From Polyangiaceae bacterium (lineage in GTDB: Bacteria; Myxococcota_A; Polyangia; Polyangiales; Polyangiaceae): a stretch of DNA of 64,000 bases. Shown here piece after piece: positions 53,765-61,032 of the stretch (positions within the stretch are counted from its first letter, which is position 1; each line of letters starts with the position of its first letter). The notes beneath the pieces were generated by a model. It was not told where the DNA came from. It saw only the letters and a program-made list of their open reading frames with translations, and did no database searches. The stretch lies in NCBI GenBank assembly GCA_050287085.1, contig JBNKBE010000007.1:128001-192000 (forward strand), in the 5' to 3' direction. A program made the position numbers and the translations under genes.

Positions 53765-53958
53765 TGGGGTGTGTGTGAGAGGGCGAGGCCTCGCGGCTCA
53801 TATCAGATTCGGCCCTCGAAAAGGGCCTGCGTGCGCTCATTCTGGTGACGAGTGGTTTCGGGGAGGTTCGTGAGCGCGGACTTTGGTCGACAATTTGGCT
53901 ATGACCTGCGCCAGTGGCGGCGTCCAGGGTATCAAAACGAGTTGGTTCGAACGACTCT

Positions 53959-55203
53959 ATGGCGGGCGGTGCGCGGCGTGCCCTGAGCCACGTCGGGGGA
54001 CGCATTTTGCTTCGTGGGGGTGACGGTGAGCTGCGCCGCGTGCTGCGTGGCGCGCTGCAGGTATCACCCGACGAGCTCCGTACGCGGCGGCACGTGCATG
54101 GTTTTCACCCCTACCCAGCTCGCCTTCATCCGGACACCGCCAATCGGTTGATCGAGGGGCTTTCCAAGGAGGGGGAAGTGGTGTTGGACCCGTTTTGCGG
54201 CAGCGGCACCGTGCTTGTGGAGGCACGCAGCCTTGGCCGTCGTGGGGTTGGTGTTGACGCCAATCCGCTGAGCGTGGCTCTTGCGCGCTTCAAGTTGGGG
54301 GCTGACGACAGCCAGGCTCGTGGACGTTGGCTGCGGGCCGCATTTGCTGTGGCCAAGGCGGCAGATCGCGAGCGTTGTGCGGGCGTTCAGGGGGTAGCGG
54401 GCATCGACAAGCAGGATGAGGACCTGTTTTCACCGCGGATGCTCTCAGAGCTCGGCTTGCTACGCACGCAAATCGCAGCCGTGGACGATGCAGCGACGCG
54501 CACGGCGCTGCTGCTCGTGTTGTCTTCCATGCTGAATAAGGTTTCGCGTCGGGTGGACGACGGCGGGGAGAAAGCGCGGGTCGCTGAGCGTCCGTCCGGG
54601 TTTGCTATTCGCTTCTTCAAGGACCGCGCCCAGGAAGTGGGGCGGCAGATGCTGGACTTCGCTCGCTCCTTGGCGCCTGAGGCGCCGGAGTGCGCTGTCG
54701 ATTTGGGGGATGCACGTGAGCTTGCATCGGTGGCGGACGGATACGCCTCCTTGATCGTAACGTCGCCTCCCTATCCCGGGGTCTACGACTACTTCAGTCA
54801 CCACGCCGCCCGGATCCGTTGGCTGGAGCTAGACGCTCAGCATCTGGCGCAGCGCGAAATCGGCGCCAAACGCGAGCTATCTCGCCTGCAGGGCGAAGAA
54901 GCGCTGGATGCCTGGCGGCGCGACCTAGTTGACTTTCTCCGTCAAATGCGGCGCGTCTTGCGTCCGGACGGGGCGGCGTGTTTGGTCCTGGCGGACACGG
55001 CGGCCGCCGGGACGGTGTTTCCCGCGGACGAGCTGGTACGGGCCTCGGCGCAAGCCGCAGACTTGAGGTGGGTGGCAACGGCATCGCAGGATCGACCCCA
55101 CTTTGATGCGATGGCGCGCCGGCTCTTTGCGGGGCGGCCCAAGCGCGAGCACCTGATCTTGCTGCGTCCCGCGGGCGACCCCGTGCAAAGCCCTCACGCA
55201 TAG
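53959..55203 (+). CDS. Amino-methyltransferase (N4-C/N6-A DNA MTase type), apparently orphan
   Basis: HGFHPYPAR, motif I DPFCGSGT, then motif IV TSPPY. Confidence 0.8.
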   Translation: MAGGARRALSHVGGRILLRGGDGELRRVLRGALQVSPDELRTRRHVHGFHPYPARLHPDTANRLIEGLSKEGEVVLDPFCGSGTVLVEARSLGRRGVGVDANPLSVALARFKLGADDSQARGRWLRAAFAVAKAADRERCAGVQGVAGIDKQDEDLFSPRMLSELGLLRTQIAAVDDAATRTALLLVLSSMLNKVSRRVDDGGEKARVAERPSGFAIRFFKDRAQEVGRQMLDFARSLAPEAPECAVDLGDARELASVADGYASLIVTSPPYPGVYDYFSHHAARIRWLELDAQHLAQREIGAKRELSRLQGEEALDAWRRDLVDFLRQMRRVLRPDGAACLVLADTAAAGTVFPADELVRASAQAADLRWVATASQDRPHFDAMARRLFAGRPKREHLILLRPAGDPVQSPHA

Positions 55204-55225
55204 TGGACTAGGTAGTGGACTAGGT
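55201..55225 (+). repeat. 12-bp tandem duplication including the MTase stop codon
   Basis: tagtggactagg tagtggactagg t. Confidence 0.9.
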
Positions 55226-55582
55226 CCGGTCCCGGGCGCTGTCGATTTCAGGTTTGAAATGTCCCGCCTTCTGGACTGACTGCCGTACTGACGCGGCTGT
55301 GCGAATTCGGAACAGCGACCCCGGCGCGGGCAGACGCTCCCCGGTTGGGTGATGCAATATGGGTCATATCCAGGGATCCTCATGAACGTTGCGTCCCGTT
55401 GCGCGGGCCTCCGGGACGTTGGCGCCGTCTTCGCCTCTGGTTGGGGCCAGTTCGCTCTCGGTCAGTAGTAGTTCTCCCAGAGCATCCGAGTGGCCAACGC
55501 AGGTTAGTGGCGCTTGCACAAGCGGAACCAATACTGCAAATCTGCAACCAGCTAGACGCCGATAGTGTGGTTATGTGTCTGA

Positions 55583-55595
55583 AATCATTAGATTG
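55583..55595 (+). promoter_or_regulatory. IHF-like binding site
   Basis: aatcattagattg against WATCARNNNNTTR (one mismatch), directly upstream of the sigma54 motif. Confidence 0.45.
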
Positions 55596-55600
55596 GCTCG

Positions 55601-55618
55601 TTGGCACGCAGGGTGCAT
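55601..55618 (+). promoter_or_regulatory. Sigma54 (-24/-12) promoter
   Basis: ttGGcacgcagggtGCat: TGGCACG, exact GG-N10-GC spacing, one mismatch to TGGCACG-N4-TTGCW. Confidence 0.75.
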
Positions 55619-55627
55619 ATAGGTGGG

Positions 55628-55762
55628 CATGTAGCGACTCGCTACAGACATCTTCGTCACAGGGGCCTGGCTTCCCCTCCCTCCCCTCATCCGGGTCCCT
55701 GTGCAGTTTTTTTGCGACGCGGTCTTGTCCCCCCCCCTCCTAGGCCGCGTCGCTCTTTTTTT
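55628..55762 (+). ncRNA. Candidate sigma54-dependent small RNA with three stem-loops and C-rich loops
   Basis: SL1 55630-55646; SL2 55658-55703 with loop cttcccctccctcccctcat then T7; SL3 55714-55753 with loop tgtccccccccctcct then T7; no credible ORF. Confidence 0.65.
55714..55762 (+). terminator. Rho-independent terminator
   Basis: gcgacgcggtct...aggccgcgtcgc 12-bp stem followed by tc-ttttttt. Confidence 0.75.
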
Positions 55763-55835: not shown

Positions 55836-56465
55836 TCAGCTAGATCCTGCCAGGCGCTGTTCTAACTCCGCCTGGAGGCGTCCGAGCTCGCGCTGCGCTC
55901 GTTGGGTGCGCTTGAGTAGCTTACGCAGCTCGGCTCGGGTGTACAGGTTAAGCCGCGGGAGGTCTCCAAAAAGGTTCCGCCGTTCCAGTTCGTCGAGGGC
56001 GCGAACGCACTCCACCTCCGTCTTGCCCCCGCGTCCGGGACTGCCGTAGCGTTCACGCACGAGACGTTCGAGTTTGGCAGCGCTCCAACCCTCCTTGTCT
56101 ACGCGTTTAAGCAGATCCTTGCGCTTGGCGGCCGGTAGAGATGCGGTGGCCACGAAATGGCGCATGTCGAGGTTTCGCCACGGTGGTTTGAGGTTGAGCT
56201 CTTTGGCCACCCTGTAGACTCGCACGCAGCGACTCAAGGTGGATACGCTGGCTGCCTTGAGCACTTCTGCCTGCAAGCGTCGCAGGCTCCATTCTTGCCG
56301 ACCCCGCGTATCTTGCCAGCCGAGCTGCTCCAGGATCATACGCCCCACGTCGTAGCATTCGTCCACCTTTAGGGCTTGGGTGCGTGACTTGAGTGCGGCG
56401 GGCCAGGGCAGGGCGCGCGCCTGCGCTGCCGTGATGCTGCTGCTGCCATCGCTCTTGCGCGCCAT
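55836..56465 (-). CDS. DUF1016/YhcG N-terminal-like helical DNA-binding protein without a nuclease domain
   Basis: YDVGRMI, S.STLSRC.RVY, L...HF and GWS..KLERLV pattern; basic; C-terminal coiled coil. Confidence 0.55.
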   Translation of the reverse strand: MARKSDGSSSITAAQARALPWPAALKSRTQALKVDECYDVGRMILEQLGWQDTRGRQEWSLRRLQAEVLKAASVSTLSRCVRVYRVAKELNLKPPWRNLDMRHFVATASLPAAKRKDLLKRVDKEGWSAAKLERLVRERYGSPGRGGKTEVECVRALDELERRNLFGDLPRLNLYTRAELRKLLKRTQRAQRELGRLQAELEQRLAGSS

Positions 56466-57187: not shown

Positions 57188-57577
57188 TTACTGGGTGACG
57201 CCGTGAGCGTGTAGCCACAAAAGCGCCGCTTCTGCGGAGGCCAGGTTTGTCGCAAGCGGAATGTTGTGGACGTCGCAAATCCGCATCAGGGCGGAGACGT
57301 CTGGCTCGTGCGGCTGGGCCGTCAGTGGGTCGCGAAAGAAGATCACCGCAAGCACCTCTCCTTCTGCCACGCGTGCGCCGATCTGTTGGTCGCCGCCGAG
57401 GGGGCCCGACAGCAACGGGATCACATCGAGCTGTGCCTTTTCTCGCAGCAGGCCACCGGTGGTTCCCGTGGCCACGATATTGAATTGTTCGAGCAGTTGC
57501 CTGTGGTCTTTGGCGAAGCTGATCAGGTCCAGCTTCTTTTTGTCGTGGGCGATGAGCGCGATGGTCTTTGCCTTCAC
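57188..57577 (-). CDS. mgsA: Methylglyoxal synthase
   Basis: [49 protein letters not shown] and ATN. Confidence 0.96.
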
Positions 57578-57735
57578 CCGCCGCACGATACCCTTCCGCT
57601 GACGCTGCGCCAAGGGGGTGCCCGGGTACGGACGAACAGTGGGTCCTGGCTCACGGGCGGACGGCGCTTCTGCGAGTCGTGGGGCATTTGCCGTTTGTGC
57701 ATGCACGCACTAATGCGGGGAGCATGGCAGTTGAT

Positions 57736-60700
57736 ATGCCGGCGGAGCGCCGAACCCCGCTGTTCGAGCGTCATCAGAACGATCTGGTACACTGGAGCCC
57801 TTGGGACGCTGCGGTCATCGAGCGGGCGAGGCGAGCGGATCGACCCCTGCTCGTGGTCTTGACCTTCACGGGCTGTGGTCTCTCCGGACGATTCCAAAGC
57901 GAATGCTTCGATGAGCCTGAAATAGCTCAACTCATGAATGAGCGCTTTGAGTGCGTGCTGGTGGACCGTCATGAGCGCCCGGACGTGGAGGCTTGTTTCC
58001 TTCCGGCCGCTCTCGCCGCGAACCCCGATTGTGCCTTGCCCCTCACGCTGTTTCTGACGCCTGAGCTCACGCTGATCTTCGCCGCACCCTACCTGCCGGC
58101 GAGCGCGAGCGAAGGGCGGGGCTTTCGCGAGCTGCTCGAACGAGTGGTCGACGTATGGGATCGCGACCGCGATGAGCTGCATCGGCGGGGAGCGGAACTG
58201 CTCGAGCATGCTCGGCGGGCGCATCAGGCGTTGCCTGTCGGGGACGTGCTGACGCAACAAGCGCTGGAGGCGCGGCACGCTTTGCAGGCCGCGCTTTCGT
58301 TGGATACCCCGGGAGCGGAGTTCCCCATGCCTGCGGTGCTCAGCTTCTTGCTGTCGGAGCAGCTTGAGAACCCCGACCCGCTGCTGGGTAGCGCGCTACG
58401 AGGGCGACTCGATCGCCTGGCCAGCGACGGCCTACGGGATCCGATCAGCGGCGGATTCGCTCGCTGCGCAGCTGATCTTGCCTGCACGGTTCCGTTTCCG
58501 GAGCGCGGTCTGAGCGACAACGCACAGCTGGCGCTGGTCTATCTGGAAGCGGCCGAGGTATTGGGGGACGAGCGCTACGCAGAAGTGGCTCGAGGAGCGC
58601 TCGACTTCATCGTCCGAGAGCTAACGACGGAGCAGGGCGCCTTCGCCACGACCTTGGGCGTCGACGGTCGCAGCGAACGCCCTCTGGTTCACCTCGAGGT
58701 CGACGTGGGTGAGCTCAAGGAGCGGCTTTCACCCGCAACACTTGAAGTTGCGTTGCGAGCGTTTCGGCTCACGGAAGCGGTTTCGGGGGAGCCGGCGCTA
58801 GCGCGGGTGGGTGAGCCACCAAGCGTGATCGCGGCGCTGTCCGACGCGGACGAGGCTCAGGTGCAGCTGGCCATCGAGGAAGCCCGACAGGTAATTGCGG
58901 CGCAACGACAAGGCACTCACGTCGTACGTGACTCGCTGGTGGTTGCGGGTTACAACGGTTTGGCGATCCGAGCTCTTGCCGTGGCGGCACTTCACCCCGC
59001 CTTTTCGAGCCAGCGCGACGTCTATCTCTCGGCAGCGCAGACCGCGGCGAAGGCGGTCCTACTGGAGCAATGGTCGAACGGTGGCTTGTCGCGAGTGGCA
59101 GCCCCCCGAGCGCTGGGTTCGCGTGCGATGCTTCAGGACTTCGCGCTCCTCGCGGAGGGGTTGCTGGCGCTATTTGCGGCAACTCAGGATGTCCAGTATC
59201 GAGATCGGGCCATGGCGTTGGCCGTACAGATGCGGGAGCGTTTTGTCGATTCTACCGGTCGCGCACTAGCGCTGGAGCCCGACGCTGCGCCGGAGCTTCC
59301 GTTTCGGCCTACGGCCAGTCACGACGGAGCACTGCCACCGGCCTATGCCACCTGTGCCGCCGTGTTTACCCAGGTCGGTCAGCAGTGCGCTGATGACGCG
59401 GACGCAAGCGAGTGGTATGAGCTCGCGCGCGCCGTGCTACGCGCTGAGAGTCAGCGCATGACACGGGGGGCGCGAGCTCACGCGGCGGGCCTACTGGCGG
59501 CACGTACGTTAGCGCGACAGCTCGTCTCGCGCGACGACGCTGCGCGGGACCAGGACACTCTGCTCGCCGCTCTTCCGATCGCAGGGGGCGCCACCGAGTC
59601 AGCGAGCCGTGGCTACTTTCGGCGCCTCGGCTTGCCCCAGGGCGCCTGTCATCGTTTGCCAAAATCCAAGCTCTGGGTGTCCAGGATTGGACTTGGAAGC
59701 TACCGGCTGTCCCTCTCGCAGCTCGAGTCCCGCTTGGCGGCATCGCTGGCGTTGAGCGAAGGGGCCAATTTCCTCGATACCGCGCCGAGCTACGGCAACG
59801 GTGAGGCGGAGCGGGCATTGGGGGGCGCGATCGGCTCCAAGGTGACATCGGGCGCGCTGCGGCGCGAAGAGCTGGTTGTGATGACCAAGGTGGGGCTCTC
59901 CAATCAGCCACCCGGGGGGGCTCTCGCGGGCTGGACAACGCTCAGTGGGTCCACCGGCTACAGTCTGTCGCCGGCGTGGCTCGACGAGCAGATCGCGAGC
60001 TCGGCTCGACGTTTGGGACTGCAGCGCGTCGATATCGTGCTGGTTCACTCTCCTGAGCTTCTGCTCCCGCACCGCACGCGGGAAGCGCTGGTGGCGGAAC
60101 TAGCAGGGGCGCTAGCACACCTTGAGTCGCTGCGGCTTGAGGGACGCATTGCGAGTTATGGTGTTTCCCTCGGACGGCTGCTGGGCGACGAGGCGTTGCG
60201 GCCCACTGAACTTTGTGCGGCGGTGGCGCGTGCCGGGGCGAAAGGCTTTGAACTCGTGCAACTACCACTCAATCCGCTCGAGCTCGGTGCTGCGGAGGTG
60301 CAACCGGGACAAGGCGCCAGCTGGCTCGAAACGGCGCACCAAAACGACTGGTCCATCGTGGCCCACCGCCCGCTCAACGCGTTGGCGGGCGACACTCTGA
60401 TTCGATTTGCCGACGCTCCCGAGGTGGACGCCTCGGACTACGAGGGTGTTCATCGGACGTTGCGAGAACTCGAGGAGGAGTTTCGGATGCGGCTCGGCGC
60501 CGTTCTGGCCGCTGTCCCAGACATCGAGCTGCCCGTTTCCGAGTTCTTCACATGGGCCGATCGGGTCGGCGAATACGAACTGTCGAGTCGCGAGTTATGG
60601 GACGACTTCGAGCGCCACATCTTGAGCGCTCACCTTCCGGGGCTGCTTCACGCGCTCAATCGGGCGTTTGCTGGAAAGCAGCTGGACGGTCTATGGCAGA

Positions 60701-61032
60701 ACTGGCGGCAGCGCTACGTAGTGGCGCTGGAAGCTTGGGTGCTGGCGGCGCGGCGCCGTTCTGGAGAGGCGACCAACGCGCGCAACGCGCCCTTCCACCG
60801 GGTGTTGGCGGAGCGCGCGCCTGCGGATCTGCGCGGGGCGAGTCTTTCGCGTTTGGTCCTTTGGAACCTCAGCAGCGCGGATGGGATCGCCAGCGTGCTG
60901 ACCGGTTTGACGACCTGTTCGCATGTACAGGATGCGCTGGGTACGCTGCGTTGGCGTGAGGCGGACGAGCCGCTCGACGACCTGCGCGACGCAGTGGCGG
61001 CCATGCCCACGCTAACCTCAGGGACGCCCTAA
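57736..61032 (+). CDS. Fusion: DUF255 thioredoxin-like/YyaL (SPATA20) domain plus aldo/keto reductase
   Basis: VDRHERPDV, P.T.FLTP, GGFAR, VPF.E..L.DNAQL, NGLAI, QDFA; then IGLGSYR, LDTAPSYG.G.AE, TKVG, VHSPE and QLPLN. Confidence 0.82.
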   Translation: MPAERRTPLFERHQNDLVHWSPWDAAVIERARRADRPLLVVLTFTGCGLSGRFQSECFDEPEIAQLMNERFECVLVDRHERPDVEACFLPAALAANPDCALPLTLFLTPELTLIFAAPYLPASASEGRGFRELLERVVDVWDRDRDELHRRGAELLEHARRAHQALPVGDVLTQQALEARHALQAALSLDTPGAEFPMPAVLSFLLSEQLENPDPLLGSALRGRLDRLASDGLRDPISGGFARCAADLACTVPFPERGLSDNAQLALVYLEAAEVLGDERYAEVARGALDFIVRELTTEQGAFATTLGVDGRSERPLVHLEVDVGELKERLSPATLEVALRAFRLTEAVSGEPALARVGEPPSVIAALSDADEAQVQLAIEEARQVIAAQRQGTHVVRDSLVVAGYNGLAIRALAVAALHPAFSSQRDVYLSAAQTAAKAVLLEQWSNGGLSRVAAPRALGSRAMLQDFALLAEGLLALFAATQDVQYRDRAMALAVQMRERFVDSTGRALALEPDAAPELPFRPTASHDGALPPAYATCAAVFTQVGQQCADDADASEWYELARAVLRAESQRMTRGARAHAAGLLAARTLARQLVSRDDAARDQDTLLAALPIAGGATESASRGYFRRLGLPQGACHRLPKSKLWVSRIGLGSYRLSLSQLESRLAASLALSEGANFLDTAPSYGNGEAERALGGAIGSKVTSGALRREELVVMTKVGLSNQPPGGALAGWTTLSGSTGYSLSPAWLDEQIASSARRLGLQRVDIVLVHSPELLLPHRTREALVAELAGALAHLESLRLEGRIASYGVSLGRLLGDEALRPTELCAAVARAGAKGFELVQLPLNPLELGAAEVQPGQGASWLETAHQNDWSIVAHRPLNALAGDTLIRFADAPEVDASDYEGVHRTLRELEEEFRMRLGAVLAAVPDIELPVSEFFTWADRVGEYELSSRELWDDFERHILSAHLPGLLHALNRAFAGKQLDGLWQNWRQRYVVALEAWVLAARRRSGEATNARNAPFHRVLAERAPADLRGASLSRLVLWNLSSADGIASVLTGLTTCSHVQDALGTLRWREADEPLDDLRDAVAAMPTLTSGTP

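Follow-up and report, generated by a model that had tools for sequence, protein, structure and literature searches.

The gap at 55534–55762 on the forward strand of the window, the 64,000-nucleotide stretch of Polyangiaceae DNA analyzed here, is very likely the gene for a regulatory RNA of ∼135 nt with two C-rich loops. Judged from sequence comparison, the locus is almost certainly that of a real transcribed RNA, and it belongs to a family that is an undescribed, modular, multi-copy variant of the C-loop small RNAs, provided with the control region of the myxobacterial RNA Pxr and standing outside Pxr as defined. The locus is contained in a gene-free gap between an N6/N4 DNA-methyltransferase-like gene (53914–55203, +; Pfam PF01555) and a convergent gene for a 209-aa hypothetical protein (55836–56465, −; no Pfam family), both of which lie outside the RNA.

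The gap comprises, in order, two ctgcaa copies, an IHF-like stretch, a −24/−12 site, three hairpins, and two U7 runs, and all elements listed in a preliminary description of this DNA are present in the sequence, some of them in a different position or reading. The two ctgcaa copies had been described as a direct repeat at 55535 and 55543; both are found, one base to the left (55534 and 55542), and are better read as a single imperfect palindrome of type TTKCA-N4-TGMAA (55534–55547), a predicted enhancer site for a PxrR-type activator. The IHF-like region (55572–55595), scored against the IHF consensus, includes the forward match previously placed at 55583 (55583–55595, one mismatch), but the register kept in relatives is the reverse one at 55572–55584 (three mismatches). 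The sigma54 −24/−12 promoter, formerly given as 55601–55618, occupies 55602–55617 (+) and would direct initiation near 55628–55631. The predicted RNA (55628–55762, +) opens with a 5′ hairpin (55630–55646), followed by hairpin A (55658–55703) with a 20-nt loop (55671–55690), a pyrimidine-rich linker (55704–55713), and hairpin B (55714–55753) with a 16-nt loop (55726–55741), which together with the U7 ending at 55762 is the probable 3′ end or terminator. As previously described, CCCCUCC is present in both loops (at 55674 and 55734), a U7 follows each C-loop hairpin (55707–55713 and 55756–55762), and the stems contain G·U pairs, of which there are three. A perfect copy of the enhancer palindrome at 55246–55259, 356 nt upstream of the promoter, is a possible distal site; it is one of 12 genome-wide, where ∼6 are expected from base composition.

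The forward strand of the locus folds with a z score of −5.72, none of 200 shuffles being as stable, compared with −1.34 (22 of 200 shuffles) for the reverse strand, and both C-rich loops are predicted to be unpaired. Comparison among relatives shows that this structure is conserved. In an alignment of 53 copies, which are kin and were fitted to the structure of the covariance model, 98.7% of the cells are paired as opposed to 30–53% in slid controls, and 16 of the 17 stem pairs change on both sides (8 of the 9 modelled pairs in hairpin A and 8/8 in hairpin B). A plain MAFFT alignment of 12 copies still gives 11/17 such pairs. This covariation supports the proposed stand-alone RNA with unpaired C-rich loops. 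The window copy itself scores 82 and 80 bits with two covariance models, both of which had it in their training sets.

What is kept across the family is two stems of free sequence, the C-runs of the loops, a pyrimidine linker (89% U or C), and a final U-tract, whereas the 5′ hairpin varies in sequence and length, the leader ranges from 3 to 181 nt, and some leaders have no hairpin. At least four C residues are found in all 53 first loops and in 47 of the 53 second loops. The suggestion that the loops are CCCCUCC anti-Shine-Dalgarno elements thus stands as far as a conserved, unpaired C-run is concerned and falls as a strict motif; CCCCUCC itself occurs in only 37/53 first and 29/53 second loops, making an anti-Shine-Dalgarno role plausible but not strict. 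Stems that are free to vary around fixed, open loops imply that the function of the RNA would reside in the loops.

Upstream of these copies, the promoter is conserved. A strict sigma54 pattern has two matches in the whole 64-kb window, and 0.29% of 205-nt stretches drawn at random from the genome contain it; it precedes the RNA, in the same orientation, in 32 of the 49 genus copies with enough flank and in 15 of 26 family copies. A relaxed pattern, chosen after the misses of the strict one were known, raises these counts to 46/49 and 25/26 against a background of 4.5%, with 0 and 1 copies, respectively, on the opposite strand; together with the loops shared by the 53 aligned copies, this supports the earlier proposal of a stand-alone small RNA driven by sigma54. 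A standard sigma70 scan of the locus found nothing. At a fixed offset from 71 promoters, the reverse IHF-like box has a mean of 2.5 mismatches versus 4.9–5.3 at four control offsets, and the palindrome TTKCA-N4-TGMAA is present at its own fixed offset in 42 of the 71 as compared with 1/71 at a control offset. An enhancer matrix built from the family with the source genome left out ranks the window site second among 3054 sigma54-like sites of that genome and a four-hairpin array on contig C1 tenth. The top site belongs to a further C-loop hairpin gene (C1:142495), and the hairpin census detected no such RNA at the other seven of the top ten. The source genome encodes one RpoN, 30 activators, and four IHF/HU-type genes. 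The sigma54 site is absent from three of the 49 genus copies and from copies in genus g28, so the regulator is not universal in the family, and some copies may have switched promoter type. C-loop hairpin RNAs with no sigma54 site, and with an upstream sequence that is sigma70-like by eye, were seen at L065, L070, and L103–L108, and the same was observed at the g28 loci L203, L204, L206–L209, L211, L212, L214, and L216.

The family is widespread in Polyangiales. A blastn search of 60 relatives matched the hairpin region in 8 of 17 same-genus genomes, and a covariance model from 12 copies found matches in 15 of the 17 other genomes of the genus, with 1 to 10 in each. Of the 64 matches to this first model 63 were examined, and the 53 scoring ≥39 bits were aligned, with 10 weaker ones left out. 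The second model, for which 26 candidates per genome were scored so that all counts are lower bounds, matched at least 60 of 150 genomes of the taxonomic family; in a sample of the order it matched at least 13/25 genomes of that family and at least 12/26, 8/9, 3/25, and 2/8 in four others, many at only 26–43 bits, with no match among the scored candidates in 15 further families. In the phylum sample at least one genome outside the order was matched. At L223 (genome G196), outside the order, a possible relative scored 34 bits; it has two C-loop hairpins and a U tail, and no sigma54 site lies close by. A collection-wide DNA pattern returned 41 matches, of which 22 scored under 22 bits or not at all and 19 scored 60–94 bits, the latter in records titled Polyangiaceae (11), Deltaproteobacteria (3), uncultured bacterium (4), and Pseudomonadota (1). 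In the Rfam check proposed for the locus, neither the region nor 20 family loci gave a match that reached a family cut-off, save one unrelated tRNA, and a literature search that mostly excluded subscription papers found no report of an RNA of this kind from Polyangiales.

Including the window copy, the source genome (G000) has four family loci. The array on C1 (486040–486490, +; locus L077) carries the enhancer, IHF-like box, and sigma54 promoter seen in the window and then four hairpins whose C-rich loops are nearly identical, and a perfect enhancer palindrome lies just 3′ of it (C1:486499). The gene that tops the enhancer ranking (C1:142495–142620, +; L237, ∼500–625) is a single-hairpin paralogue that was missed by the genome-wide model searches. 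The remaining locus (C8:236130–236225, −; L071) is a one-loop paralogue without a recognizable sigma54 site, possibly decayed or re-wired, with syntenic copies in five other genomes. Tandem clusters were also observed (L143, L145, L156, L149, and in genomes G419 and G371), either as complete units of promoter and RNA spaced by a few hundred bases or as long hairpin arrays.

The only syntenic counterpart found for the window copy is in genome G014, where the same methyltransferase-like gene lies upstream and a homologue of the 209-aa protein lies beside it. The nearest Atlas clusters of this protein are unnamed and mostly from Myxococcota, and DUF1016_N, seen in 21% of the members of one cluster, is a weak lead. 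Elsewhere in the neighborhood, a 12-nt tandem duplication (55201–55224) spans the stop codon of the methyltransferase-like gene, and a long open reading frame (57568–61032, +) combines a thioredoxin-type DUF255 region with an aldo/keto-reductase domain.

The hairpins could in principle be a 3′ end or terminator of the neighboring genes, a dispersed repeat, or a small coding gene in place of an independent RNA, and the last hairpin could indeed stop the convergent gene, the downstream gene being convergent in 37 of the 53 loci. On crude ORF calls, however, the upstream gene points away from the RNA in 26/53 loci and the same way in 23, the hairpins are accompanied by the promoter, IHF box, and enhancer, and the core lengths are spread over all three frames (12, 18, 23). 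Variable neighbors, upstream genes that point away, and lengths in every frame argue against read-through and coding alike; a coding role is rejected, as is methyltransferase read-through, which had been named as a finding that would undo the small-RNA reading, and we regard the whole of this explanation as very improbable. A different question is whether two terminators yield designed forms of 85 and 135 nt, as first proposed. The window copy does have U7 after both hairpins, and Pxr is reported to exist in long and short forms (PMC10217877), but that study ascribes these forms to nuclease processing, by RNase D. Within 8 nt of hairpin A, six or more U residues are found in only 13 of the 53 copies, whereas the final tract has at least five in all 53 and at least six in 42; the U7 of the linker is particular to the window copy, its counterpart being missing from the syntenic G014 copy. 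Neither window hairpin passes a standard terminator scan, which requires a loop of 3–8 nt. The poor conservation of the first U-tract and its loss in G014 make two designed terminators unlikely, and the claim of two terminators does not hold for the family, although the window copy might terminate partly after hairpin A.

The closest known system is Pxr (RF01812) of Myxococcus xanthus and relatives, which is reported to gate fruiting-body development and to depend on its C-rich loop, a C-to-A change in the first loop abolishing function (PMC5684412, PMC5568312). The gene upstream of Pxr encodes PxrR/Nla19 and is described as required for Pxr synthesis (PMC10217877), and a preprint reports contacts of Pxr near the Shine-Dalgarno sequences of several mRNAs in a species without Hfq (bioRxiv 2025.09.11.675593). 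The family resembles Pxr in its sigma54 promoter, enhancer palindrome, IHF-like box, and similar length, in a host whose genome (97% complete) gave no match to Hfq, and in a C-run loop, the GGU(U)C5 context of which recurs in 23/53 family copies though not in the window copy. It differs in that RF01812 has no match at E values up to 10 in the region or the source genome and none in 20 family loci (cut-off 80 bits), and the family covariance model scores 12 Pxr copies at 14–23 bits, where non-Pxr controls reach 14. The C loop of Pxr is in the first of three stem-loops, whereas the window RNA has its C loops in hairpins two and three, after a variable first hairpin; C-loop modules number one to four in the family versus one in Pxr. 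Moreover, the Polyangiales RNAs are multi-copy, scattered, and never beside the activator gene (0/45 loci, comprising 36 from Polyangiales and nine weak matches elsewhere in the phylum), whereas Pxr lies directly downstream of pxrR/nla19 and is reported as confined to Cystobacterineae. Membership in Pxr is ruled out by the lack of an RF01812 match, the weak model scores, and the absence of an RNA beside the activator. In the phylum samples RF01812 was above cut-off in none of 121 genomes and a probe pattern was found in none of 301; Pxr carriers thus seem to be absent from the samples, which therefore give no view of the family model on whole Myxococcaceae genomes.

The control region, by contrast, is shared with Pxr. 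Natural Pxr genes were taken from metagenome contigs (23 matches, of which 20 were scanned and 12 were true Pxr at 87–129 bits with RF01812), and each of the 12 has the family palindrome further upstream, in two to four copies; most also have an IHF-like box about one turn further out than in the Polyangiales family. The family matrix, which was never trained on Pxr, scores the 12 Pxr promoters at 10.7–21.1 bits, compared with a 99th percentile of 9.8 and a maximum of 13.6 over 600 background sites. In the other direction, a Pxr-derived matrix ranks the window site first of 3059 and lifts 59 of the 71 promoters of the family past the 99th percentile. The sites behind this matrix had been selected by a pattern resembling that of the family, so that only the family-to-Pxr direction is independent. 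The source genome also contains a probable PxrR orthologue, an activator with receiver, AAA+, and Fis-type domains on contig C8 (∼98966–100432), hereafter the C8 activator. Among the 30 activators it is the best match to the helix-turn-helix of PxrR/Nla19 and the best blastp match of all 10 full-length PxrR-like proteins (52–55% identity, next 43–47%) in a one-way comparison. It forms one clade with these proteins (SH-aLRT 100) in a quick tree of 28 of the 30 activators, with two partial ones omitted and no Myxococcaceae paralogues included. No kinase gene adjoins it in the source genome. Of 18 family genomes, 17 have exactly one activator carrying the PxrR recognition helix. Across the class, the PxrR tail used as a query found such an activator in 25/301 genomes, but this search was insensitive and missed known carriers. 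In six of the 36 Polyangiales loci (L243, L247, L248, L252, L260, and L268, by eye) the enhancer lies just 3′ of the PxrR-like gene, mostly with a sigma54-like site, at the position that pxr occupies in Myxococcaceae, but before a short ORF; in L268 this ORF encodes a lone receiver domain (Pfam PF00072), and four others look alike by eye. The Pxr-like character first suggested for the RNA is consequently supported by an enhancer of the same type and a probable shared activator, a stronger link than was originally claimed, and it is highly likely that a PxrR orthologue drives the window RNA.

Other C-loop RNAs resemble the family in form. The Cuckoo RNAs of Alphaproteobacteria (RSs0680/CcsR and SmelA075/SmelA099 types) are likewise described as two to four adjacent hairpins with variable stems, a fixed C-rich loop, and several copies per genome (PMC4615179, PMC3927594). 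Their defining CCUCCUCCC loop motif is in neither loop of any of the 53 family copies, and RSs0680a is reported as RpoH-driven and Hfq-bound (PMC4615179), whereas the family is sigma54-linked. The absence of this motif, the different phylum, and the lack of an Hfq match in a nearly complete genome rule out membership; one hairpin of the C1 array does carry CCUCCUCCC. The best Rfam match, the alphaproteobacterial ar7 (RF02342), has CCCCUC-loop hairpins and U-rich linkers, but it scores 23.3 bits in the window and at most 35.6 in 20 loci, too far under its cut-off of 60 for membership, and the resemblance is most likely convergence. Staphylococcal RNAIII-type RNAs, compared by description only, likewise leave C-rich loops unpaired, for which pairing to ribosome-binding sites has been proposed (cited in PMC4615179), but no sequence, promoter, or taxonomic link to the family was found.

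These features are consistent with a mechanism in which the phosphorylated C8 activator would bind the palindrome at 55534–55547, IHF would bend the DNA between enhancer and promoter, and sigma54 polymerase would start near 55628 and stop at the U7 of 55756–55762. The resulting 135-nt RNA would hold two C-rich loops open on stems free to drift, and the loops would initiate base pairing at G-rich or Shine-Dalgarno sequences in several mRNAs, preventing their translation without Hfq, with several paralogues under the same enhancer adding dose. Given that the RNA is real, action by pairing with mRNA is likely by analogy; the whole account of a stand-alone trans-acting RNA with PxrR-type activation, IHF, sigma54, and loop pairing is favored with moderate confidence. 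Of its elements, the structure, promoter, enhancer, existence of the activator, and range of the family are established by comparison; that the RNA is transcribed, bound upstream by the activator, paired to mRNA, and repressive are predictions.

Two alternatives accept the RNA and alter one part of this account. In one, the enhancer likeness is generic to myxobacterial activators and a different member of the 30 in the source genome drives a real sigma54 small RNA; the window enhancer copy is imperfect, and the enhancer offset is ∼−68 in the family versus −92 to −153 in Pxr. Against this, many family palindromes are identical to those of Pxr, only one activator, mostly single-copy, has the PxrR recognition helix, and the palindrome stands beside a PxrR-like gene in several loci, which leaves another activator improbable. 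In the other, the gene and its regulator are the same and the identical C-rich loops would titrate a C-binding protein. CsrA binds GGA loops and is titrated by RNAs of the CsrB type. The source genome has one match to CsrA together with KhpA/B-type KH proteins, and none to a cold-shock domain, and a family locus may contain one module, two, or an array of four, with loops that are nearly the same. Shine-Dalgarno use is evident in this genome, with GGAGG at −15 to −11 of 2929 ATG genes 90 times as compared with 10–23 further upstream. Scans that used gene starts from our own crude caller showed no target enrichment: strong loop complements (−16 kcal/mol) near start codons were found for 194 of 4328 genes versus 224 and 187 in control windows, 7-mer complements were in modest excess (35 versus 13–24), as for any Shine-Dalgarno-like word, and no target stands out in the source genome. 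A sponge is still unlikely, if less so than a different activator; no C-loop-binding protein is linked to any locus examined, CsrA recognizes GGA rather than C-runs, and for the known RNAs of similar form, pairing at ribosome-binding sites is what has been reported or proposed (PMC4615179, bioRxiv 2025.09.11.675593).

With the enhancer of Pxr and a probable orthologue of its activator present across Polyangiales, the origin of Pxr, the best-studied myxobacterial small RNA, becomes testable through the Polyangiales family, as does the question of whether the two main myxobacterial lineages have an RNA gate on development in common. Pxr has been placed in Cystobacterineae and reported as recent in origin (PMC5684412). 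We put forward, tentatively and at rather less than even confidence, that the circuit of PxrR activator, enhancer, and C-loop RNA predates the divergence of Myxococcales and Polyangiales, and that Pxr descends from an ancient family as a derived member reduced to a single copy. Rather than by common descent of Pxr and the family RNA, the C-run could also have arisen twice under one regulator, being a simple element. The palindrome is a candidate PxrR binding site, and none was found defined in the portions of the Pxr literature consulted. If the older circuit is real, Cystobacterineae would not have invented Pxr recently and de novo, Polyangiales would have expanded the C-loop family to as many as eight to ten copies and to arrays, and both lineages would share an RNA checkpoint on a starvation or development programme.
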